Shown here piece by piece: positions 3-12,829 of a DNA stretch of 64,000 bases. The notes beneath the pieces were generated by a model. The model saw only the letters and a program-made list of their open reading frames with translations, had not been told where the DNA came from and searched no databases. The position numbers and the translations under genes were made by a program. The stretch is from positions 11,143-75,142 of the forward strand of contig CAWGRK010000017.1 of assembly GCA_963824995.1 (NCBI GenBank), given 5' to 3'. How positions within the stretch are numbered: the first letter of the stretch is position 1; each line of letters opens with the position of its first letter. This DNA comes from an uncultured Actinomycetes bacterium (GTDB taxonomy: Bacteria; Actinomycetota; Acidimicrobiia; Spongiisociales; DATADW01).

Positions 3-227
3 CGACGTCGTCCCGAGATCGCCGAGCTGCCGGTGGTGGGGGGCGCGGTCCTGTTGATCGTCTGGTCGTTGCTCCGGCTGTCCACGTTGTGGATGCCGTC
101 GCTGCCGTCGGGACTGCCAACCGGTATCGAACGTGCGCTGCTGGCGGTGACCCTGGTGCTCGCTTTGTGTGGTCTCGCCTTTTCGATATTCGGACGACAG
201 CCATCGAGTCGAACCGCCGAGAGCTGA
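3..227 (+). CDS. membrane protein, C-terminal fragment (5' end outside window)
   Basis: The frame is open from the window edge to TGA at 225-227. Hydrophobic helices are present (AVLLIVWSLL, LAVTLVLALCGLAF). No family recognised. Confidence 0.3.
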   Translation, partial: RRRPEIAELPVVGGAVLLIVWSLLRLSTLWMPSLPSGLPTGIERALLAVTLVLALCGLAFSIFGRQPSSRTAES

Positions 228-268: not shown

Positions 269-1258
269 TTAGTCGACTACCACGGTGAGCACGGTGGTTT
301 GCACGACCACGCCGTTCCAGCGCCATCGACCTACGAACTGGTAGGTGCCCGGCCGCATCGAACGGAACTGGTAGACGAACACCTTCTTCGCCTTGCCGCC
401 GGCTGTTCTCAACATGGAACCGTTCGGGTCGAGGGTCTCGCCGTCCACCGTCAGGGCGAAACGGGTTGAGTCGGAGATGAATGTCGAGCGCTCGCCCGTC
501 ATGTAGGGGAGATCGTGGACGACGCCCTCGCGCACCACGTAGGTCCTCCCCGGCGGGAAGTGCTCGGTCCCGGTGCAACGGGTCCGGTCGGCATCGCAGC
601 TTCCGCGGAACCGCCCGCTGAGGCTGATTGTGGGGTAGATCAAATCGAGGTCGAGCGCCCTGGCGAGAAAGCTGGCCATCTGGGCGCGGGTCACCGGGTC
701 GTCGGGACAGTAGGACGTGTCGGTGCAACCCTGGGTGATCCCGTCGGCGGCGATGGCAGCTATCGCACGGGCATGGGTGCTCCCCGGGCTCACGTCGTCG
801 AACACTCGTCCCGGGCGACCGGCCAGTCCCTCGGCGCGAGCGAGAAAGCTGGCCATCTGGGCGCGTGTCACCGGTTCGTCTGGGCAGAAAAGCCGTGGAG
901 TGCAGCCCTCGGTGATCCCTTCTTCCTCGATAGCAGCGATGGCACCGGAGTGCGTGCTTCCCGGGGTCACGTCGTCGAACACCTCCCCCGCCCGTGTGCC
1001 CAACCGGTAGGCACGGGCCAGGAAACTCGCCATCTGCGCCCTGGTTACCGAGAGCGAGGGGCAGTACCGATCCTCGGCACAACCCTTGGTGATCCCGTCG
1101 GCGGCGATGGCGTTGATCGCTGCCTCGTGGTAGTCCCCGTTGTCATCCTCGAATGCACCGCCGGTGTTGGGGAGATCGGCCTGGCCGGAGGCGGGTTGCA
1201 CTGCGACCGCCGTAACCAACGCCGCCACCGCCGTCGCTGCCAGCACCAGCGCTCTCAC
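269..1258 (-). CDS. secreted S-layer-homology (SLH) domain protein: 3 SLH repeats plus a C-terminal beta-rich domain
   Basis: Signal peptide MRALVLAATAVAALVTAVAV. Three ~60-aa repeats follow the pattern F.DV.PGSTH..AIAAI...GIT.GC....YCP..PVTRAQMASFLARA. The ATG at 1258 overlaps the upstream stop (ATGA). Confidence 0.8.
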   Translation of the reverse strand: MRALVLAATAVAALVTAVAVQPASGQADLPNTGGAFEDDNGDYHEAAINAIAADGITKGCAEDRYCPSLSVTRAQMASFLARAYRLGTRAGEVFDDVTPGSTHSGAIAAIEEEGITEGCTPRLFCPDEPVTRAQMASFLARAEGLAGRPGRVFDDVSPGSTHARAIAAIAADGITQGCTDTSYCPDDPVTRAQMASFLARALDLDLIYPTISLSGRFRGSCDADRTRCTGTEHFPPGRTYVVREGVVHDLPYMTGERSTFISDSTRFALTVDGETLDPNGSMLRTAGGKAKKVFVYQFRSMRPGTYQFVGRWRWNGVVVQTTVLTVVVD

Positions 1259-1716
1259 GGATCCACCTCGAGCGTGGCGAGAACCTGGTTGACCTCCTCC
1301 ACGAGCGCCCTTCGGGAGGCGTGGCTGCCGAGAACGACATAGAGGCAGAAGGCACGACCTCCGTCGGAAAAGAACCGCTGGACACCGCTCTGACCCGGGA
1401 TGAGCCGCTGCAACGTTGACGTCGAGAAGTCATCGGGGTGGAGACGGTCGGGGCGAGCGGCGGCGAACAGCACCTTGCCCGCCGACGCCGGGTCGAACTC
1501 GAAGATCGAGACGAAGATGTCGTCGGAGCGCATCATCTCCACCGCGCCGCCGCCGTAATCGCCCCGCTCTGCGGGGAGTTGGAAGGTGGCGGCATGGAGA
1601 ACGGCGTGATTGGTGCCCACGGCTTGTGGGACCGCCTCGGTCCGGTACACCTCCCCCTCCCATCCAGTGGGGAGGTCGATTCGGAGCCGCTCAGAGTCGA
1701 TCTGCACAGAGGTCAC
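1255..1716 (-). CDS. hypothetical protein (no signal peptide or TM segment seen)
   Basis: The GTG at 1716 overlaps the stop of the upstream gene (GTGA). Composition is protein-like from VTSVQIDSERLRIDLPTGWEGEVY onward. The Arg/His-rich N-terminus of the 253-aa track ORF looks like read-through. Confidence 0.5.
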   Translation of the reverse strand: MTSVQIDSERLRIDLPTGWEGEVYRTEAVPQAVGTNHAVLHAATFQLPAERGDYGGGAVEMMRSDDIFVSIFEFDPASAGKVLFAAARPDRLHPDDFSTSTLQRLIPGQSGVQRFFSDGGRAFCLYVVLGSHASRRALVEEVNQVLATLEVDP

Positions 1717-2300
1717 CAGGCGGCGATCACTAGAACAGCCATGGCGGTGAGGGTGGCGATGGTGGCGATGCGGGCATAGGGCGCGGCCTCCGCCAGGCGG
1801 CGGTGCAGCAGCCTCAACCCACTGGGGTCGACAACGCGTGACGAGGCGAGCAGGGTCGCCGCCCTTGCTCCGCCGAAGATCGCTCCGATCATGATCCCGG
1901 TTCCGACGGAGCCGGTCAGGGCCGCCAAGGCAAAGGTGGCGTAGACCGCGGCGGTTGTGACGATGGTCACCACCCCGAGCCCCAGTTGAAAACCGAAGCC
2001 GGCGCCGTAGACCCAACCGCGGTAACGGTGCAACCAGTCATCGTCCACCTGCCGTCTCGCCCCGGGAAGCCGTCTCCCGGATGTGTCCAGCAGCGCCGCC
2101 GAGAGGCAGATGAGGACGGCCAGCCAGGCCACCACAACCGGGCCGGGTGAGAGCATTGCCCCGAGCACCGCCCCGATGGCGCCGGCGATCCCACCCGCAA
2201 TGACGCCACCTGCCACCGACCCGGCTATGTAGGCCGTGGCGGTGATCCAGAACCGGTTGTGTCTTGCCCGCTCGCCGAGCGGGTGGATGCTGGCCAGCAT
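1713..2300 (-). CDS. polytopic membrane protein (about 5-6 TM), family not recognised
   Basis: ATG 2300 is preceded by a GAGGGGAG RBS. Gly/Ala-rich TM helices. It is a member of the mauE/mauD-like operon. Confidence 0.6.
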   Translation of the reverse strand: MLASIHPLGERARHNRFWITATAYIAGSVAGGVIAGGIAGAIGAVLGAMLSPGPVVVAWLAVLICLSAALLDTSGRRLPGARRQVDDDWLHRYRGWVYGAGFGFQLGLGVVTIVTTAAVYATFALAALTGSVGTGIMIGAIFGGARAATLLASSRVVDPSGLRLLHRRLAEAAPYARIATIATLTAMAVLVIAAW

Positions 2301-2380
2301 CGACTCCCCTCAGGGTGACCAGGCGGAGCGCAGCCCGGCCATCAGGGCCACCACAGCCGCGCCCGCGAACAGCATGTCGC

Positions 2381-3094
2381 TCATGTGTCATCCGTCTCGT
2401 CGGCGATCCGATAAAGGCTGGGGTGACCAGGCACGATTCCTCCGGCGAGCAGTTCACGGGTCTCGCGGTCGGAGACCGGCCCGTCTGCCATCAGATCGTC
2501 GGCGCGAGCTCGCTCGAGCAGTGAGACCATCTGCCGCCAAGAGGCAGCGGCTCCCTCACCGGCAACCCGTCCCGAAGGCCCGTCCACCAGGATGAAATAG
2601 GGCGCCACGGGTACCCGGTAGTGGTCCCACGCCTCGCTCGACATGGCGGTGGTGACACCGTGGGGAGCGAGTGCGGCGACCGTGGATTCGCTCTCGGCTT
2701 CGGGGCCCTTGGTCACCACCACCAGACGGACGCCCGCCGGGATGCGCTGGTCCTCGCCGAACGCCTTCCAAAACCCGGCACAGGTAGCACACCCGCTGCT
2801 GAGGAAGGCGAGCAGCGTCTGGCGCTCGACACCGACGACAGCCACCTTCACCGCCCCGCCACCCGGGCGCCTGCCGGAGAGGTCGGCCGCGGCGGTGGCC
2901 TCTGCCCGAGGTGGAGGCACGCCCGGTCTGGTTCGGAGGGGGACCGTTGCCGTCTCGCTGTCCTCGCCCGCCCCCAGTCGGTGCAGGCTGCGCAGGATGT
3001 CGGCATGGCTTCGCAGCAGTCCGAACACAAGGACGCCGAGCACCGCGATGACGACAGCCTCCAGGATCACGAGGGTGAGCAGCGCGGCATCCAT
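2381..3094 (-). CDS. membrane-anchored thioredoxin-like protein (MauD/TlpA-like)
   Basis: ATG 3094 overlaps the upstream stop (TGATG). It has an N-terminal TM segment LLTLVILEAVVIAVLGVLVFGLL and a CxxC motif (SSGCATCAGFW) in a thioredoxin-fold-like region. Confidence 0.7.
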   Translation of the reverse strand: MDAALLTLVILEAVVIAVLGVLVFGLLRSHADILRSLHRLGAGEDSETATVPLRTRPGVPPPRAEATAAADLSGRRPGGGAVKVAVVGVERQTLLAFLSSGCATCAGFWKAFGEDQRIPAGVRLVVVTKGPEAESESTVAALAPHGVTTAMSSEAWDHYRVPVAPYFILVDGPSGRVAGEGAAASWRQMVSLLERARADDLMADGPVSDRETRELLAGGIVPGHPSLYRIADETDDT

Positions 3095-4428
3095 CACGAA
3101 ACGCCCCAGACCAACGGCGTGCCGTCGGAAGGCCCAAAATCGAATGTGACCTGGGACCCCCCACCCGTGGGCGTCTGGCGCAACCGCCATTGTCCGGAGT
3201 CGAAGATCCCGATCCCATCGATTCCGTCGCCATTCCAATCACCTACGACGGGGGAACCGGCGGCCCCGAAGGTGAAGATCCGGTCGGCAGTCCCGCTCGT
3301 CAACGAATCGCGCAGCAGCCACTCACCGTCGCGGTACAGGCCGGGCGAGTCCCCGCCGCTGCCATCCCAATCACCAACGAGAGGAACGCCGTCGCCGCCT
3401 CCGTATTCGAACTCGATGTCTGGCGGTCCCGACCCGAGGCTTGTTCGGAGCATCCAGGTCCCGCCGCGCACCACACCTGGGAGGTCTCTTCCATCACCCG
3501 TCCAGTCGCCCACCACCGGGATGTCGCCGATGCGGCCGAACTCGAAGACGATGTCCGGCTCTCCGTCGCCTGGCGCGCTGCGTAGCAGCCAGACCAGCCC
3601 TGTATCGGAGAGGCGGCCAAAGCGGGTTCCGCGGACGATCCCGGCCGTGGCGGTCCCCGACGCAGTCCAGTCGCCCATCACCGGGTGGTCGCCGATGATC
3701 CCGTATTCGAACTTCTGGTTGGCGCCGCCATCGGTCAGCGAGTTGCGCAGCCGCCATGTGTTGCCGTTGACCACCGCGGGCCGTGCCATCAGCGGGGGAG
3801 GGGCGTGCAGGCACGGTCTGTCGTGGAAGCGGGTGTTGTTGTCGGTGGCGACCGTCGCCGAGCACGATTCGTCGCTCTCCCATGGTGGGGTGCAGGTCAC
3901 CACCCGGCACACGATGGGGCCAACACAGGCTACGTCCTGGTTGCACTGGCCATAGCGAAAAGCGGCACAGCACGCCTTCCGGTTGCCGCAGGTTCCGGCG
4001 CCGCAGCCACAGTCGCACAACCCGACACAACCCGACCCGCACGTCCCCGACGAACCGCAGCCACAACTCCCACAGTTGTCCACGTTGCAGTCGATGTAGT
4101 ACCTGGGCAGGTCGGCGCCATCCTGGACGCAGAAACCGCTGACGTCCGCCTTCCACCATCCAGCGGCGAGCGTCCCGGATGGGCAGGAGTTCGACCCGTA
4201 AAGGGTGCAGCAGAACTCGGTGTAACCGTCACAACACAGCGCCGAGCAGTCACAGGACGAGCCCGAGCAACTGCATATGGCCGAGTACGCCGACACCGGC
4301 CGCAGCGTGTAGGCGACCGGGGCGGTGGCCAGGGCCGATCCGACGAGGGCGGCGTTTCTCAGAAAGCCGCGCCTGCTGGTCCTCGCGGCGAGGAACCGGC
4401 TCCCAGCGTCTACCAGCCGGACGCTCAC
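3094..4428 (-). CDS. Tat-signal protein: cysteine-rich MauA-like (methylamine dehydrogenase light-chain-like) domain fused to about 5 FG-GAP/VCBS repeats
   Basis: GTG 4428 overlaps the mauE-like stop (GTGA). Twin-arginine motif TSRRGFLRNAALVGSALATAP. The domain has 28 Cys in 156 aa, including NSCPSGTLAAGWWKA...YYIDCN..CG. It is followed by repeats of the form W.LR....G......F.FG..GD.PVVGDW.GDG. Confidence 0.75.
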   Translation of the reverse strand: MSVRLVDAGSRFLAARTSRRGFLRNAALVGSALATAPVAYTLRPVSAYSAICSCSGSSCDCSALCCDGYTEFCCTLYGSNSCPSGTLAAGWWKADVSGFCVQDGADLPRYYIDCNVDNCGSCGCGSSGTCGSGCVGLCDCGCGAGTCGNRKACCAAFRYGQCNQDVACVGPIVCRVVTCTPPWESDESCSATVATDNNTRFHDRPCLHAPPPLMARPAVVNGNTWRLRNSLTDGGANQKFEYGIIGDHPVMGDWTASGTATAGIVRGTRFGRLSDTGLVWLLRSAPGDGEPDIVFEFGRIGDIPVVGDWTGDGRDLPGVVRGGTWMLRTSLGSGPPDIEFEYGGGDGVPLVGDWDGSGGDSPGLYRDGEWLLRDSLTSGTADRIFTFGAAGSPVVGDWNGDGIDGIGIFDSGQWRLRQTPTGGGSQVTFDFGPSDGTPLVWGVS

Positions 4429-5054
4429 CGACCGGCCCGGGCCGCGTTGAGACGGGGCAGTTCGGTCATCGCCATGACCACGCCTGCCACGCCGATCACC
4501 AGGAATGCGAGGAAGGGGATGCCCGCCCACGGCTGGGTTGCGACCAGGTCAACGATCCCGGATGGCGGCGCCACAAGGGCTGCGGTGAGGCACACCCCGG
4601 CGGCGACGAGATCGATAACAAGATGGGTCGATCCGGGGGGCGCATCCTCCTGGCCGAAACACCCACAGGAAGCGACCTCGATACGACCCGACATCGCCGC
4701 AGCGACAAAACCGGCGAACACCAGATAGAAGCCGGCGACCACCAGCGCCGCCGCCCGCCCGCCGAAGACCAGCGCCGCCGAACCGGCAACCAACTCGGCC
4801 GCTCCCATCAGCCGCGCCGCCACCCGCGCAGCAGGGATATGCAGCGCAGCCAGAGCGCCGGCGGCCGGACCCGGCCGGACCAACTTCATCGCCCCACCCA
4901 CAGCCAGCACCGCGGCAGCCAGGACGAATGGACCGCTCAGCACGCGGCGAGCATAGGCAGAGACCTTTCGGAAGACCACGTTGCCCACACGGCCCAACGG
5001 CGATGGCGGGGTAACATCTGGACCCCCCAACTGGCAGGAGGGTCGAATCTCCAT
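4425..5054 (-). CDS. MauE/DoxX-family redox-associated membrane protein
   Basis: Four TM helices and the characteristic SCGCFG motif (RIEVASCGCFGQEDAP). The start is uncertain: ATG 5054 or in-frame GTG at 4988 or 4979. Confidence 0.75.
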   Translation of the reverse strand: MEIRPSCQLGGPDVTPPSPLGRVGNVVFRKVSAYARRVLSGPFVLAAAVLAVGGAMKLVRPGPAAGALAALHIPAARVAARLMGAAELVAGSAALVFGGRAAALVVAGFYLVFAGFVAAAMSGRIEVASCGCFGQEDAPPGSTHLVIDLVAAGVCLTAALVAPPSGIVDLVATQPWAGIPFLAFLVIGVAGVVMAMTELPRLNAARAGR

Positions 5055-5071: not shown

Positions 5072-5602
5072 TTGGCCCGGGTGGTCCTGGTGCCGGTCAT
5101 CATGTGGTTGATAAGCGCCAACCAGCGGATCGACCATGGGTTTGGTTACGCCGCTGTGCTGTTCTTCGTGGCGGCGCTCACCGACTTCCTCGACGGATAC
5201 TTCGCCAGGCGTTGGGGGATAACGACCGTCCTCGGTGCCTTCCTCGACACCACGGCGGACAAGTTCCTCGTCACCGGGACGTTGCTCGCACTGATCGCGG
5301 TAGACCGGGCGTCGATCTGGGTGACTCTGATAATCGTGCTCAGGGAGTTCGTCGTAATGGCGCTGCGAGGACTGGCGGCGATGAGCGGCACCATGGTCAA
5401 GCCATCCATTTGGGGGAAGCTCAAGGCGAGCATCCAGTTCCTCGCCATACTCCTCGCCATCCTCCGGCTACCCGAGCCGTGGGGCCCGCTTTACCTCGAT
5501 GAGTGGGTCATGTGGCTGGCGGCGATCGTGACCATTGCGTCGGGGTGGCAATACGTGGCCAGTTTCTGGTCGGTGGTACGCGCTGTAGATACGCGGACGT
5601 GA
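5072..5602 (+). CDS. pgsA: CDP-diacylglycerol--glycerol-3-phosphate 3-phosphatidyltransferase (CDP-alcohol phosphatidyltransferase)
   Basis: Motif DFLDGYFARRWGITTVLGAFLDTTADK matches D(x2)DG(x2)AR...G(x3)D(x3)D. The TTG start at 5072 looks N-terminally short; the frame is open back to 5015 with only a CTG candidate. Confidence 0.8.
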   Translation: MARVVLVPVIMWLISANQRIDHGFGYAAVLFFVAALTDFLDGYFARRWGITTVLGAFLDTTADKFLVTGTLLALIAVDRASIWVTLIIVLREFVVMALRGLAAMSGTMVKPSIWGKLKASIQFLAILLAILRLPEPWGPLYLDEWVMWLAAIVTIASGWQYVASFWSVVRAVDTRT

Positions 5603-7159: not shown

Positions 7160-8171
7160 ATGGACACGTTGACCCAACCGAAAACCAATCCCCCCCGCCC
7201 ACCATCCCGCCAGCCTGTGCGTAGGCGTCGCCGGCGGGGCCGGGGGTGGGTGCTCTTCTTCCTGCTCCTGGCAGTTGTTGCCGTCTTTGCCGCTGCCGGC
7301 TACGTCTATCTCGACCAACTCGCCATGGATCGCGTGTCCGTGGACACCCTGTCGGCGGCGGGAGGACCGACCAACTACCTGATCGTCGGATCCGACAGCC
7401 GTGAGGACCTTCCCGACGATCTGGAGGGGAACTTCGGTGACTTCAGCGGCTCCCGTTCCGACGTGATCATCCTCGCCCATGTAACCGACGGGCGTCGCCA
7501 GCTGCTCAGCCTGCCGCCGCGACCTCAAGGTGGACATTCCCGGTGAGGGCACCAACCGGATAAACGCCGCCTACGCCTTTGGCGGTCCTGAGCTGCTCAC
7601 CGAGACGGTCATCGATGAGTTCGGCATGCCCGTTCACCATTACCTCGAGGTCGACTTCGGGGGCTTCGCATCGATAATCGACGCCGTGGGCGGGATCGAA
7701 CTCGATATCCCCTACCCGGCACGCGACCTCAAGTCCGGGCTCGAGATCGATGCGGGCGAGCAGACCGTGGACGGCGCAACTGCCCTCGCCTACGCCCGCT
7801 CGAGACAGTACGAGGAGCTGCGTGACGGAGAGTGGGTCCCTCGGGGTGGCGGCGACCCAGGCAGAACCTCGCGCCAGCGCGAGGTCATGCTCCAGGTGCT
7901 CGCCAAGGTGGGTAGCCCGGCGGTCCTCGTCCGCACCCCCGGCCTGGTCACCGCGGTCTCCTCCAACCTCACGGCCGACGAGGGGCTCTCGCTCTGGGAC
8001 CTGCTCCAAACCGGGGTGGCGATGCGGTTCGCCGGGGAGACCGACACCGTTTCCCTACCGGTGGTCAGTGCGCCGGAGAATGGCGTCGCCTATGTCGCCC
8101 GCGATGAGCCCGAAGCGACCGACATGATCGACGACTTCTCCGACGGGCGCCCCTTGGAAACCGAGGAGTAG
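7160..8171 (+). pseudogene. LytR-CpsA-Psr (LCP) family cell-envelope transferase, one +1 frame break as sequenced
   Basis: N-terminal TM, then NYLIVGSDSRE...RSDVIILAHV in frame 2. The conserved LSLP|RDLKVDIPG..NRINAAYAFGG continues in frame 0. There is an extra base near 7517 within ccgCcgc. Confidence 0.75.
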
Positions 8172-8251: not shown

Positions 8252-11200
8252 TTGGCTTCCGTCTTCCGTCTCTCTTCTACCATCTCGGGGCTCGTGCCCG
8301 CGCCGCTCGCTTCGCTGGTCGAACGGTGGCGGCCCCACAAACTCCCCGGTGCGACCGGGCGGCTCGTGGTGCCGCCCAATGCCCGCGCCATCCTTCTCGG
8401 CGGTCTGGCCGCCAAAGCTCCGGGCGCGGTACTGGCAGTCGTTCCCGGCGAGCGCGACGCCGAGGAGCTAGCCGACGACCTCGAGCTCTTCACCGAGCGT
8501 GTCGCTCTGCTGCCGGCATGGGAGACGCTGCCCTTCGAACACGTCTCACCCAACGTTGGCACCATGGCGCGAACGCGCCCGTGCCAGGCACGTCCTCAGC
8601 GAAAACGAGCCGGGAACGGTGGTGGTGGCGTCGGCCCGCTCGGTCTCGCAGCGGGTCAGCCCTTCGGCGGTGGAACCGATCACTGCGGAACCAGGCGAGG
8701 ACGTTGGGTTCGAGCGGCTCATCAGGGACCTCGCCCTGGCGGGCTATCACCGATCCGATCGGGTGGAGGCCCGGGGTGAAGTGGCGGTGCGGGGCGGGAT
8801 CATCGACGTGTTCCCCGCCCAAGGCGATGAGCCGGTCCGGATCGAGTTGTGGGGCGATGAGGTCGACTCCATCCGCGTGTTCGCCATCTCGAGCCAGCGG
8901 TCGATCGAGCCGGCCCCTGGGCTGGTGGCCTACCCAGCACGGGAGTTTCGTCCGGAGGGTCTGGTGGCAGATGAGGCGCGCCGCCTGCTCAACACCGAGC
9001 CATGGGCCGCCGCCACCTGGGAGCGCCTCGCCGAAGGGCTCGTCTTCCCCGGCATGGAGTCGTGGCTCCCGTGGATGACCCCACCGGTCACGGTCCTCGA
9101 CGAGCTTCCGCCTGGTGCCCGGTTGGTGGTCTTCGACCCTGTGAGGGCGGGTGACCGCAGCCGCGATCTGGTCAAGGAGGAGGCGGAGCTCGCAGCGGCG
9201 CTGGCCCCGACGTGGGGTCACGGCGCTCCCGAGGCTGGAGAGCACCCCTCCCTGTACCTCGATCTCGGCCGGTCGCTCGAGGACCGCGATCTGCTGGCTG
9301 CCCCACCGCTGGCGGCCGGACCGAGCGATGATCGGATCGAGGTTCGTGGGCTCGACGCCACCCCTGGGGACCCCGAGTCGATTGGGCGCGGTCTCGACCG
9401 ATTGATGGCGAGAGGGACCACGGTCGTGGTGGCGATGGACGGCGAGACCGCCGCCGACCGGGTGGCCGGAGTCCTTGCGGACGAGGGTCTTGCCCTTCCC
9501 CGCCGCCCCACGCTCGACAAAGTGGAGTCGGCTGTGCTGTCGATCGGGATCCACCGCGGTTTCGTGCTTCCTTCGCTCGACATCGCCGTCCTCGGCGAAC
9601 AGGAGATCGCCGGTAGGCGACGAGCGCACCGCCGTGCCGCCCGCCGCGCCCCGGCAACCGGAGGGGACTACCGGGACCTCACGCCTGGCGACTATGTGGT
9701 CCATCATCGCCACGGGATCGGTCGCTTCGAGGGGATGGTGACCCGGAGCATCGCCGGTGTGGAGCGTGATTACCTGGTGGTGGCATACGCAGCGGGTGAT
9801 CGCCTCTATGTCCCCACCGACCAGCTTGCTGCAGTGCGCAAGTACACCGGCGGAGAGGAACCGCGCATCTCCCGGATGGGGGGCAAGGACTGGGCCGAGA
9901 CCCGGGCTCGGGTGCGGAGGGCGGTGGCGGCGGTGGCGGAGCAGGTTGTGGCGCTGCACCGCGCCCGTGCCGCAGCCAAAGGGCACGCATACCCCCCCGA
10001 CGCAGCCTGGCAGCGGGAGATGGAGTCCGCCTTTCCATACGAGGAGACGCCCGATCAACTCACCGCCATCGTCGATGTCAAGGACGACATGCAGCAGGAC
10101 CGGCCGATGGATCGGTTGGTCTTTGGCGATGTTGGGTACGGGAAGACCGAGGTGGCGATTCGTGCCGCCTTCAAAGCGGTCCTCGACGGCAGGCAGGTGG
10201 CGGTGCTGGTGCCCACCACGCTCTTGGCTCAGCAGCACCACCAGACATTCTCCGAGCGCTTCGCCCCCTACCCGATCAGGGTCGAGGTGCTCTCCCGGTT
10301 CCTCACCCAGCGCCAGCAGAAGACCGTCGTCGAAGCGATGAGGCGCGGCGACGTGGACGTGGTCATCGGCACCCACCGGCTGCTCTCCGACGACATCCAC
10401 TGGAAGGACCTCGGACTGCTCGTGGTAGACGAGGAGCAGCGCTTCGGGGTGAACGCCAAGGACGCCATAAAGCAGCTCCGGGTCGGGGTGGATGTCCTCA
10501 CCCTCACCGCCACGCCGATCCCGCGGACGCTTGAGATGGCGCTCACCGGCATACGGGACGTGAGCCACATCCGTACACCCCCAGAGGACAGGCACCCCAT
10601 CCTCACCTACGTCGGTCCATACGACCAACAGGCGGTAGCCGCGGCGATCCGTCGTGAGTTGCTGCGCGAAGGACAGGTCTTCTACGTGCACAACCGGGTG
10701 CGGTCGATCGAACGTGCCGTCGCCCAGTTGAGGGAACTGGTCCCCGATGCCAGGTACGCGGTGGCTCATGGCCAGATGTCCGAAGGGCAACTCGAGCAGG
10801 TCATGCTCGACTTCTGGAGCGGTGAAGCCGACGTCCTCGTAGCCACGACCATCATCGAGTCCGGACTCGACCTGCCCCAGGTGAACACGCTTGTGGTGGA
10901 GCGGGCCGACCTGCTCGGTCTCGCCCAGCTATATCAGTTGCGCGGCCGTGTCGGTCGGTCCAGCCAGCGGGCCTACGCCTACCTGTTCCACCCGACTGAT
11001 CAATCGATCACCGAAGAGGCCCACCGGCGGCTCGAGGCGATCGGCGAGGCGACCGACCTGGGGTCCGGTTTCCAGTTGGCTCTGCGCGATCTGGAGATCC
11101 GCGGTGCCGGTTCCGTCCTCGGCGAGATCCAGTCGGGGCAGATCGCGGCGGTCGGCTTCGACCTCTACGCCGAGATGGTGGCCGACGCCATCCGCCAGAT

Positions 11201-11678
11201 GGAGGGGACCGAGCCTCCACCCGAGCCATCCGAGGTCAGGATCGAGCTTCCCGTCGTGGCGCACCTGCCGCCCGAGTATGTCGGCGACGACGAGGCTCGG
11301 CTCGAGGCCTATCGCCGCCTCGCCGAGGCCGACACGGTGGCAGCTGTGGACGATGTCGCCGTCGAATGGGTGGACCGGTACGGGCCGCCACCCGAAGCAG
11401 CGCTCCAGTTGCTCGACGTGGCGAAGCTGAGGGTCGAGGCCCTTCGCATTGGTCTCGCCGAGGTGGTCCAGTTGCGTCACGAAGTCCGTTTGGCGCCGGT
11501 TGACCTCACCACATCACAGGAGGTCCGGCTGCAGCGGCTATCCCCAAAGGCGGTGCTCCGGCCTACCGACAGCGCGATGTTCATACCGGCGCCAAAACCA
11601 CTGGTGACTGGGCTGGTCGCATTTCTCACCGCCATGTGGCCACCACTCGATCAAGCAAGAACCGCCGAGGAGGCATAG
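8252..11678 (+). pseudogene. mfd: transcription-repair coupling factor Mfd, one +1 frame break near 8570 as sequenced
   Basis: The N-terminus (LLPAWETLPFEHVSPNVGTMA) is in frame 2. The rest is in frame 0, with Walker A GDVGYGKTEV, DEEQRFG, helicase motifs and a TRG-like C-terminus. The TTG start at 8252 is uncertain. Confidence 0.85.
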
Positions 11679-12829
11679 TGCCGAAACGGGCCCGGTTGGC
11701 GGTCGGCGCCGTGTTCTTGATCAACGGCCTGGGGATAGCGACCTTCCTCCCTCGGCTCCCCGAGATCCAGCAACGGCTCGGGCTGAGTGATGCCGGGTTG
11801 GGCGCCGCCCTCACCGGAGCCGGGTTAGGTGGCCTCCTCGGCAGTCTGGCTGCCGGTCCGATCGTCTCCCGCCTTGGGAGCCGCAAGGCAACCCTTGCCG
11901 CCGGGACCGTCCTCGGCGTGGCGCTCTTCCCGCTCGCGATCGCCCCGAGCGGCGCCGTACTTGCTTTAGCCCTGGCCGCTGTCGGTTTCGCCGACGCCGT
12001 GACCGATATCGCCATGAACGCCCACGGCATGAGGGTTCAGCGGTTCTATCCCCGGCCCATCATCAACGGTTTCCACGCCGCCTGGAGCGTCGGCGCCATG
12101 ACCGGGGCGCTGTTGGGGAGCCTGGCTGTTGCCTTGACGGTTCCGCTGCAGGCCCAGATGGCGGTGATCTCCGTGCTCGTGGTCTGCGCTCTCTGGGTAG
12201 CCGTTGCATGGTTCCTCGCCGATGATCCGGCGAGTGCGGTTGTCCCCGGGGTCCGCCCCCGTCTGCGCGGCCTTGGGGCGCTTGCCGTGGTTGCGCTGGG
12301 GACCGGGATCATCGAAGGCGCACCCGCTGACTGGGGAGCCGTATATCTGGAGGGGACGGTGGGCGCGCGCGCCGCCGTCGCTGGGCTCGGTTACACGGTC
12401 TTCGCCGGTGCCATGCTGGTCGGACGCATGGTGGCCGACCGCTTCGTCCATCGTTTTGGGCGGGCTGTCGTCGTTCGCGTTGGAAGCCTGCTCGGTGTCG
12501 CCGGGTTCTTCATCTCGATCGGCGTGCCCTCCGTGTGGGGTGTGATGATCGGGTTCGCCGTAGCCGGCATCGGGCTTGCCGCCCTGTTCCCCGCCATGTT
12601 CGCCGCCGGGAGCGAAGTGCCCGGGCTGGGCGAGGGAGTGGGTATCGCCGGTACGTCCCTACTCGCCCGGATCGGATTCATGGTGGGTCCATTTGGGATC
12701 GGAGCGCTCGCCGAAGCAACCGGCAGCCTCCGCTGGGGGCTGCTGGTCGCACCCGTGGCCGGGTTGGCGGTGGCCATCGCCGCCAGGGCGGTCGGTGAGC
12801 GCCATACCCTCGAACCGTTGGAGATGTGA
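11678..12829 (+). CDS. MFS transporter
   Basis: About 12 TM helices with an MFS-like loop (GPIVSRLGSRKA). GTG 11678 overlaps the mfd TAG by 1 nt. Confidence 0.75.
   Translation: MPKRARLAVGAVFLINGLGIATFLPRLPEIQQRLGLSDAGLGAALTGAGLGGLLGSLAAGPIVSRLGSRKATLAAGTVLGVALFPLAIAPSGAVLALALAAVGFADAVTDIAMNAHGMRVQRFYPRPIINGFHAAWSVGAMTGALLGSLAVALTVPLQAQMAVISVLVVCALWVAVAWFLADDPASAVVPGVRPRLRGLGALAVVALGTGIIEGAPADWGAVYLEGTVGARAAVAGLGYTVFAGAMLVGRMVADRFVHRFGRAVVVRVGSLLGVAGFFISIGVPSVWGVMIGFAVAGIGLAALFPAMFAAGSEVPGLGEGVGIAGTSLLARIGFMVGPFGIGALAEATGSLRWGLLVAPVAGLAVAIAARAVGERHTLEPLEM

Follow-up and report, generated by a model that had tools for sequence, protein, structure and literature searches.

We analyzed a window of 64,000 nucleotides (nt) from an uncultured Actinomycetes bacterium of the class Acidimicrobiia (contig CAWGRK010000017.1 of assembly GCA_963824995.1, positions 11,143 to 75,142 of the forward strand). 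Our attention was on a block of six genes at window positions 269-5054, all on the minus strand, which we discuss here as a putative system for the maturation of an exported Cys-rich protein. Gene 1 (4425-5054) codes for a MauE-family membrane protein, and gene 2 (3094-4428) for an exported protein of 444 amino acids (aa) made of a twin-arginine translocation (Tat) leader, a Cys-rich head and a beta-propeller tail. They are followed by gene 3 (2381-3094), whose product is a membrane-anchored, MauD-like protein of the thioredoxin type, and by gene 4 (1713-2384 as re-annotated here), coding for a 223-aa MauF/CcdA-like membrane protein with a predicted selenocysteine (Sec) at residue 25. Gene 5 (1255-1716) encodes a protein of 153 aa with no signal peptide, membrane helix or family match, while the product of gene 6 (269-1258) is secreted and has three SLH domains plus a C-terminal domain. 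In methylotrophs, MauE, MauD, and MauF are the helpers required for producing the small subunit, with its six disulfides, of methylamine dehydrogenase (MADH).

Organization of the Gene Block

Direct reading located all six open reading frames (ORFs) listed in a preliminary description of this DNA, and the same six genes appear in the public annotation of the source contig (ENA ERZ25039469 contig_76250, 809 kb). Stop and start codons overlap as GTGA at 4425-4428, TGATG at 3092-3096, GTGA at 1713-1716, and GTGA at 1255-1258; the first three had been read likewise in the preliminary description, whereas the last had been given as ATGA. Between genes 3 and 4, an 81-nt gap with a good ribosome-binding site (RBS) had been reported. 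The gap measures 80 nt (2301-2380) and is coding, not a spacer: the presumed RBS, GGGGAG, is a Gly-Glu codon pair after a TGA codon at 2310-2312, and the ORF of gene 4 starts at ATG 2384-2382, which overlaps the stop codon of gene 3 as ATGA. Since this "spacer" is coding and begins at ATG 2384, five of the five junctions in the block are overlaps. The start of gene 1 is ambiguous, being either ATG 5054 or GTG 4943, and public calls on near-identical contigs give products of 127, 154 or 184 aa. Judging from where the orthologues begin, GTG 4943 (VLSGPF...) is the likelier start.

The Exported Protein and Its Cysteine-Rich Head

The leader of gene 2 (4282-4428, minus strand, approximately residues 1-49) comprises an n-region, the motif RTSRRGFL, an h-region and an AYA/AYS-A cleavage-type site. 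It scored 17.9 bits against the Tat-signal model TIGR01409 (cutoff 16.7), with R19, R20, and F22 invariant, confirming the Tat signal that had been claimed for this protein. Beyond this signal, gene 2 had no other significant match to a Pfam or NCBIfam family. The part of the leader that precedes the RR motif is conserved in the family as well (L5, R11, L13) and loosely resembles the long leader of MauA, the MADH light chain (LV[DE]xxSRx[LV]AxRT). Conservation upstream of the RR motif is unusual for Tat signals, and a chaperone may dock on this segment.

The 28 Cys of the protein are all found within 155 residues (52-206) of the head (3793-4281, minus strand, approximately residues 50-212) and none in the tail. 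Sixteen of them are invariant and five more are conserved in at least 90% of the sequences. Besides Cys, the invariant positions of the head are W91 and W92 (4153-4158), R109, Y111, D113, FRYGQC at 157-162, and W183. An AlphaFold2 (AF2) model of the head alone was confident without ligands (predicted local distance difference test, pLDDT, of 88; predicted template modeling score, pTM, of 0.83), and the model of full-length gene 2 had a pLDDT of 86. A Foldseek search with the head-only model found no fold match in the PDB (best E = 1.9) and no light chain of MADH or of aromatic amine dehydrogenase (AADH). As no PDB fold matches it, the head may represent a new fold.

The tail (3097-3792, minus strand, residues 213-444) is an FG-GAP-like, five-bladed propeller with four GDWxGxG loops, modeled by AF2 as five sets of four strands. 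With the full-length model, Foldseek retrieved generic propellers only, including the integrin-like lectin PVL (E ~1e-3), and the match of the tail to Pfam FG-GAP_3 was not significant (E = 0.77). The FG-GAP fusion suggested in the preliminary description is not supported by Pfam, although the modeled fold is a propeller.

Genes Accompanying the Exported Protein

The product of gene 1 matched Pfam PF07291 (MauE) with E = 2e-12 and 47.9 bits (cutoff 27), as the preliminary description had anticipated. Its SCGCFG motif has the CGC codons at 4659-4667, and K57, E87, and C130-G-C132-F133-G134 are invariant or at least 90% conserved among 80 orthologues. The protein therefore shows the hallmarks of the MauE type: F-G directly after a CXC, and a conserved Lys and Glu, located in helices 1 and 2. 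The same features have been reported for active MauE, where they are needed for DsbB-like activity (Gonzalez et al., bioRxiv 2026, 10.64898/2026.03.05.709764). According to this study, MauE has a four-helix topology and replaces DsbB via its CXC site, probably with a thioredoxin-fold partner. We also found three proteins (P0054, P0099, and P0106) in which MauE is fused to a gene 2 homologue. Given the published four-helix topology, the hydrophobic segment of the leader is a fifth helix in these fusions, which would place the Cys-rich head on the same side of the membrane as the CXC loop. No match to gene 1 was found by tblastn among the plasmids of PLSDB.

The only family match of gene 3 was the NCBIfam model of MauD (TIGR02661; E = 7e-5, 22.3 bits), far under its cutoff of 188.6. 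Likewise, the gene 3 family hidden Markov model (HMM) scored only 25.6 bits against a genuine MauD, with a BLASTP E-value of 0.039. Both proteins have an N-terminal membrane helix and a CxxC motif, which in gene 3 is C102-A-T-C105 (2780-2791) and is invariant in 78 orthologues. For the MauD role assigned earlier to gene 3, the membrane anchor and the CxxC were confirmed, and MauD is its sole, though weak, family match. In gene 3 (2996-3094) as in genuine MauD (positions 7328-7450 of the reference locus L085, described below), the N-terminus ahead of the helix has no charges, and the helix leads into a basic, amphipathic stretch (RSHADILRSLHRLG) that is conserved.

No Pfam, NCBIfam or PDB match was obtained for gene 5, even with a family profile, and it has no similarity to MauJ. 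Its C124 is conserved in 92% of orthologues, and the gene is also found in five clusters whose gene 2 has a different tail. We regard its product as an obligatory partner without an export signal, possibly a chaperone that binds the leader of gene 2. In gene 6, Pfam SLH (PF00395, E = 9e-23) matched three stretches, in agreement with the three SLH domains noted before. Eight Cys are conserved at 92-100%, a pair in each SLH repeat (GxTxGC...xCP) and C221/C228. Because these conserved Cys pairs are found in each repeat and in the C-terminal domain, the SLH protein is probably also a client of the disulfide machinery.

A Predicted Selenoprotein Related to MauF

As a reference for the mau genes we used a Hyphomicrobium-type cluster, L085 (mauFBEDA-amicyanin-mauJ-mauG), which was reached via a MauA sequence. 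MauF was the only mau protein that tblastn located in the window (E = 2.9e-8). Even in its truncated form, gene 4 matched the MauF of L085 by BLASTP (E = 2.4e-12) and with its family HMM (69.5 bits). In some loci the MauF match reached upstream of the annotated start, and for this reason we examined the apparent gap between genes 3 and 4. The reading frame of gene 4 runs through it as MSDMLFAGAAVVALMAGLRSAWSP-TGA-GESMLASIHPLGER. The in-frame UGA (2310-2312, minus strand), a predicted Sec codon, lies in the motif RSxWSP-U-GESML and falls on the redox Cys of the SPC motif of MauF and CcdA. When the extended protein was compared to MauF with U written as C, the BLASTP E-value improved to 1e-19, with 33% identity over 192 aa and WSP-U-G aligned on WSPCG; approximately 70 N-terminal residues of MauF have no counterpart in gene 4. 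The extension also widened the coverage of Pfam DsbD_TM from profile positions 35-179 to 5-179 (E = 9.8e-6), and the newly covered part is the helix that carries the SPC redox Cys. The DsbD_TM score of 25.5 bits is just below the gathering cutoff of 27.1, and DsbD_2 was sub-threshold too.

The TGA codon was present in 52 loci (51 of the 52 scanned, plus L089), with the motif RSxWSP-TGA-GESML invariant. Upstream of it, the ORF has about 20 codons that vary in sequence but are always hydrophobic, and the start codon and frame are kept in all. Three orthologues in the same cluster context are single ORFs with a Cys codon instead, TGC in L045 and L091 and TGT in L090. Downstream of the UGA, we identified a candidate bacterial Sec insertion sequence (SECIS) element at 2267-2301 (minus strand), composed of hairpins H1 (2286-2301, GAUGCU-N4-AGCAUC) and H2 (2267-2283, CCCGCUC-GGN-GAGCGGG), which begin 9 and 27 nt after the UGA. 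In the RNAalifold consensus, the breaks in stem pairs at otherwise invariant positions all came from one Cys-form sequence. Codons in the hairpin stems were fixed in 96-100% of sequences, compared to 31-56% for equally conserved residues elsewhere (Mann-Whitney p = 1.9e-4), and the loops vary. This constraint on synonymous sites reaches 45 nt beyond the UGA. Predicted hairpin energies ranged from -5.8 to -11.5 kcal/mol where the UGA is present, but only from -0.8 to -5.2 kcal/mol in the three Cys forms, in which the peptide is kept. No SECIS or other Rfam family matched the hairpin region, the z-score of its minimum free energy taken alone was not significant, and none of the NCBIfam selenoprotein models matched gene 4 above its cutoff.

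Taken together, these features make it highly probable that gene 4 codes for a selenoprotein that is truncated in public annotation. The public start is ATG 2300, giving 195 aa, and the best 120 database homologues were all called from this Met, which lies four codons beyond the UGA, and some bear the name "sulfite exporter TauE/SafE." Several observations weigh against Sec. No selA, selB, selD or tRNA-Sec was found in the 64-kb window or in the approximately 0.8-0.9 Mb of loci scanned, where the queries for selA and selD were Escherichia coli sequences. TGA represents 92% of the ordinary stop codons in these clusters, so that its constancy says little by itself.

The same observations could be read as two separate ORFs, in which case UGA would end a membrane peptide of 24 aa and a distinct 195-aa protein would start at the AUG four codons on, served by an RBS of the type GGNGAG. 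The invariant Met after the UGA and the GGAG-like sequence before it agree with such an arrangement, as do the uniform public gene calls, the lack of Sec genes in the DNA scanned and the usual role of TGA as stop codon here. We nevertheless consider two ORFs improbable. The stop would fall exactly on the catalytic Cys codon of the SPC motif, the three Cys orthologues read through with both the GGAG-like sequence and the hairpins lost, and synonymous constraint over 45 nt is far more than a start site needs. Finally, Sec machinery has been reported in Actinomarinales, another order of Acidimicrobiia (10.64898/2026.04.03.716425).

Conservation and Distribution of the Cluster

To assess conservation of the gene neighborhood, as the preliminary description had proposed, we compared 47 related loci with enough flanking sequence. 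Genes 1, 2, 3, and 5 were present in all 47, gene 4 in 35 and gene 6 in 36. One gene order and strand was kept in every locus and the flanking genes vary. With the same genes, order and strand in 47 of 47 loci, the arrangement exceeds chance. Two loci, L044 and L073, are full clusters on two contigs of one metagenome-assembled genome (MAG; DATKEA01, SMAG_U14487), which suggests paralogous clusters within one genome. More than 2220 homologues of gene 2 were found, and those with a name are proteins of Acidimicrobiia MAGs ("hypothetical," "TAT signal domain-containing"). Relatives are encoded in at least 514 of 185,579 species-representative genomes, nearly all of them Acidimicrobiia MAGs; the 80 best matches come from MAGs without exception.

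A profile of the head alone retrieved 473 clusters at 50% sequence identity, 371 of them with E ≤ 1e-10. The head is always N-terminal after an RR signal, and GWW and FRYGQC are kept, whereas the C-terminal parts differ. We inspected the loci of five such tail variants. The tail has LGFP repeats in L083 (8001-9878), forms a PLL-type propeller in L089 (6001-7599), and has no assigned family in L084 and L090; in L091 (6001-7797), SLH is fused to the gene 2 homologue itself. MauE, the thioredoxin and gene 5 accompany all five, sometimes in a different order. Four also have the MauF-like gene, which is in the Sec form in L084 and L089, in the Cys form in L090 and L091, and absent from L083. The core set therefore consists of the head protein, MauE, the MauD-like thioredoxin and gene 5, with the MauF-like and SLH proteins as frequent additions. 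Ricin-like tails and tails resembling cell-wall-binding repeats were also seen among the C-terminal sequences of head proteins.

MauE has been proposed to be a generalist, and only about 10% of the species bearing MauE have MauA (Gonzalez et al., 2026). Hence, genes 1, 3, and 4 could simply be the general disulfide system of the cell that happens to lie beside an unrelated Cys-rich gene. We find this very unlikely: the genes co-occur in fixed order in 47 of 47 loci despite differing flanks, the helper set follows heads with five different tails, one MAG has two clusters, and MauE-gene 2 fusions exist.

Wall-polymer genes surround several clusters (L084 1-7400 and 12050-13171, L089 9454-10368, L090 1-2525), including glycosyltransferases, PMT_2, Glyphos_transf, LytR_cpsA_psr, and an AftD-like GT-C; this neighborhood would fit a wall-associated role. 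In the window, a divergent gene for a CDP-alcohol phosphatidyltransferase (PgsA-like) abuts the operon at 5072-5602 (plus strand; Pfam CDP-OH_P_transf on the public call), and a convergent membrane-protein gene (33-227, plus strand) directly follows gene 6. A PgpA gene lies immediately downstream of the cluster in L001. In L003, a relative with 92% identity, an FAD-linked oxidase (10200-11870), judged by eye to be of the PCMH/BBE type, is encoded just downstream of the SLH gene. As it is absent from the window, we rejected it as a member of the cluster.

Comparison of the Head With MauA

The preliminary description had likened the Cys-rich part of gene 2 to the MADH light chain. This resemblance was not supported. 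Pfam PF02975 gave no match at E ≤ 10 for the window protein or for 32 family members. Against PDB sequences, phmmer and family profiles of gene 2 retrieved only the Tat signal of NosZ and noise; a Paracoccus denitrificans MauA query confirmed that light chains of MADH and AADH were in the set searched. The Foldseek search described above was negative as well.

When the gene 2 family was aligned to 31 MauA precursors, hhalign returned a probability of 95% (E = 2e-8, 117 columns). We rejected this value as proof of homology, as the score comes mostly from the Tat leader. The leader alone reached 96.7% against MauA leaders. Among controls, ten generic Tat leaders scored 13-24 and the NosZ leader 34.6, similar to what was seen with single MauA leaders (20-43), and the part of the leader before the RR motif did only slightly better than the Tat controls. 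The mature core alone obtained probabilities of 4-18% (P ~0.001-0.01), a score reached by 2 of 100 to 2 of 300 column shuffles. The weak core alignment follows a pattern CPxG...W...DC and places W91 on Trp57 of the tryptophan tryptophylquinone (TTQ) of MauA, D113 on Asp76, and D67 on Asp32. The second TTQ residue, Trp108, has no aligned partner in the head. From these data, MauA ancestry of the head is no more than possible.

A more far-reaching reading would make the head a very distant relative of the light chain that carries a quinone like TTQ or cysteine tryptophylquinone (CTQ), and gene 2 a wall-bound redox enzyme matured without MauG. It could draw on the core alignment, in which CPxG...W91...D113-C falls on CPPG...Trp57...Asp76-Cys of MauA (P = 0.0096, 2 of 300 shuffles), on the invariance of W91, W92, D113, and W183, and on a BLASTP E-value of 5.7e-4 between gene 2 and one MauA in a comparison of nine proteins. 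Moreover, both gene 2 and MauA have a long Tat leader and are located beside MauE, MauD, and MauF. We judge this reading unlikely given the negative Pfam, PDB-profile and Foldseek searches, the unpaired Trp108, and the hhalign probability that is largely a Tat-leader effect. The cluster also has no gene for MauG, a radical-SAM protein, a flavoprotein or a haem protein, and because the tails vary, the propeller is no substitute for MauB. The quinone cofactor raised in the preliminary description has no support beyond two aligned residues.

In its most specific form, the head would descend from the light chain and form its quinone on W91, with D113 acting as Asp76, without MauG and by means of MauE, the MauD-like protein and seleno-MauF, perhaps with gene 5. 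We give this form little credence. If true, Acidimicrobiia would carry new wall-anchored quinoprotein oxidoreductases with interchangeable targeting tails.

A Proposed Maturation Pathway

The reading that we moderately favor is that the block is one translationally coupled operon of six genes, encoding a dedicated thiol-redox maturation system built from mau helper genes for a new disulfide-dense, wall-associated protein. In this model, gene 2 would be exported via its twin-arginine leader. After export, the thioredoxin of gene 3 would oxidize the head's Cys along with the four Cys pairs in the SLH protein, and MauE would in turn re-oxidize the thioredoxin, passing the electrons to the quinone pool. 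The predicted seleno-MauF-like protein would act as a reducing or shuffling branch for sorting up to 14 disulfides, and the SLH protein would tie the product to the wall. CcdA/DsbD-type proteins carry reducing power outward. We infer the redox flow through the observed family members, motifs, syntenic genes and fusions because of this property and because MauE replaces DsbB via its CXC site. Since relatives swap the tail for LGFP, PLL-propeller and SLH modules that bind walls or sugars, the head would be the working part and the tail would position it. A dedicated system is favored by the finding that this helper set recurs beside head proteins whose tails are of five different kinds, in other gene orders too.

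Several points weigh against this model. The Cys of the head could serve as metal ligands instead of forming disulfides. Tat substrates are normally folded before transport, which is hard to reconcile with folding after export; MauA poses the same paradox. Because MauE has been proposed as a generalist, the dedicated role is deduced only from synteny and fusions. CcdA and DsbD need two redox residues, one catalytic Cys in each half of the membrane domain, whereas the MauF-like protein has a single one, without a second conserved Cys (the one Cys of the window protein is 4% conserved). Missing from 12 of the 47 clusters, it is also not essential to the core. The side of the membrane on which the thioredoxin domain of gene 3 lies is not obvious from the positive-inside rule, as the charges follow the helix.

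In another reading, the Cys of the head would bind a metal or an iron-sulfur-type cofactor loaded in the cytoplasm. Gene 5 would then be an assembly or proofreading factor, and the thiol-redox genes would serve the SLH protein or protect the site. Cytoplasmic loading would explain the use of the Tat route, the Cys-Gly-rich stretch CGSCGCGSSGTCGSGC resembles metal-binding sequences, and the obligatory product of gene 5 has no export signal. However, no ferredoxin, high-potential iron protein (HiPIP) or metallothionein match was found in Pfam or the PDB, and AF2 folds the head confidently without ligands. The MauE-gene 2 fusions and the strict synteny suggest that the disulfide machinery has gene 2 as its client, and Actinobacteria are generally known to export many cofactor-free proteins via Tat. 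A metal-binding head thus appears quite unlikely to us.

If the dedicated maturation system is confirmed, MauE, MauD, and MauF can act together as a transferable maturation module whose clients are not restricted to MADH. The block would offer a natural, genetically linked client with which to study the roles of MauD and MauF, unclear decades after their discovery. The predicted MauF/CcdA-type selenoprotein family, with its WSP-U-GES motif, was found in no NCBIfam model and did not appear in a term search of the selenoprotein table in PMC13188914; it is unusual to find Sec in a thiol-transfer protein of the membrane. The head constitutes a new domain, about 155 residues long and able to hold up to 14 disulfides, with no PDB fold match, 473 sequence clusters and swappable wall-binding tails, carried by a widespread, uncultured lineage of soil and water. 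For annotation in general, gene 4 illustrates how recoding can make part of a gene look like an intergenic gap with a good RBS.

Comparison With Known Systems

The public annotation of the block is limited to "hypothetical," "TAT signal domain-containing," and "sulfite exporter TauE/SafE," with nothing functional, and no paper that we found describes it. The view in the preliminary description that this combination is not a described system is therefore upheld. A precedent exists in Streptomyces, where candidate RiPP (a peptide made by the ribosome and modified after translation) clusters detected by decRiPPter have mauE or mauD beside genes for Cys-rich precursors, outside methylotrophy (PMC7794033). 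In both cases, mauE/mauD genes of Actinomycetota neighbor one that encodes a Cys-rich product. In those clusters, however, the products are short precursor peptides with at least 8 Cys and no MauF-like selenoprotein has been reported, whereas gene 2 encodes a Tat substrate of 444 aa in which a folded head is joined to a tail that binds the wall.

Among known selenoproteins, the closest in kind to gene 4 is TsoB (NF045694), a rhodanese/DsbD fusion listed in the prokaryotic selenoprotein table of PMC13188914; a term search of this table found neither MauF, CcdA nor "cytochrome c biogenesis." TsoB also combines Sec with a DsbD-like membrane domain and matched gene 4 weakly (E = 0.03-0.1). It is, however, a fusion of 572 aa with a UxxxxU motif, in contrast to the 223-aa, MauF-like gene 4 with WSP-U-GES. 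The CcdA/DsbD-ResA pathways share with our block the DsbD_TM match from profile position 5, the SP[C/U] in helix 1 and an adjoining gene for a membrane-anchored thioredoxin-like protein. Gene 4 differs from them in its single redox residue, a predicted Sec, in the lack of a second conserved Cys and in a score below the cutoff. With the generalist MauE of Gonzalez et al. (2026), gene 1 has in common the CXC-FG, the Lys and Glu, a thioredoxin-fold partner and the absence of MauA. Unlike that generalist, gene 1 appears to be tied by its operon, and sometimes by fusion, to one client and to a MauF-like predicted selenoprotein.

The closest comparison is the mau cluster itself. MauB, MauG, and amicyanin of L085 had no tblastn match in the 64-kb window at E ≤ 1, as the preliminary description had stated of mauB, mauG, and amicyanin, nor in 82 related loci at E ≤ 1e-3, and the Pfam labels of genes neighboring the related loci include none of the three. 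MauJ is missing from the block too. The client is not a Pfam light chain, has another predicted fold, contains 28 Cys instead of 12, and is fused to a propeller. The gene order here is E-client-D-F, the gene 5 family and the SLH protein are added, and the MauF homologue is shorter by approximately 70 N-terminal residues with a predicted Sec for Cys. The host belongs to Acidimicrobiia and is not a proteobacterial methylotroph. What the two clusters share is a set of MauE, MauD (weak), and MauF homologues around a Cys-dense exported protein with a Tat signal, whose Cys the helpers would act on in both cases. The first three genes had been described as mirroring the part of mau clusters that handles the small subunit, and this parallel holds for MauE and, weakly, for MauD, though not for a MADH light chain as client. 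With the additional MauF homologue, the sequence comparisons support the operon as a closer mirror of that part than had been thought. Given the negative tests for the MauA family and the lack of MauB, MauG, and amicyanin in the window and the related loci, the block is not a MADH system; it would work like the helper part of one, on a different client.

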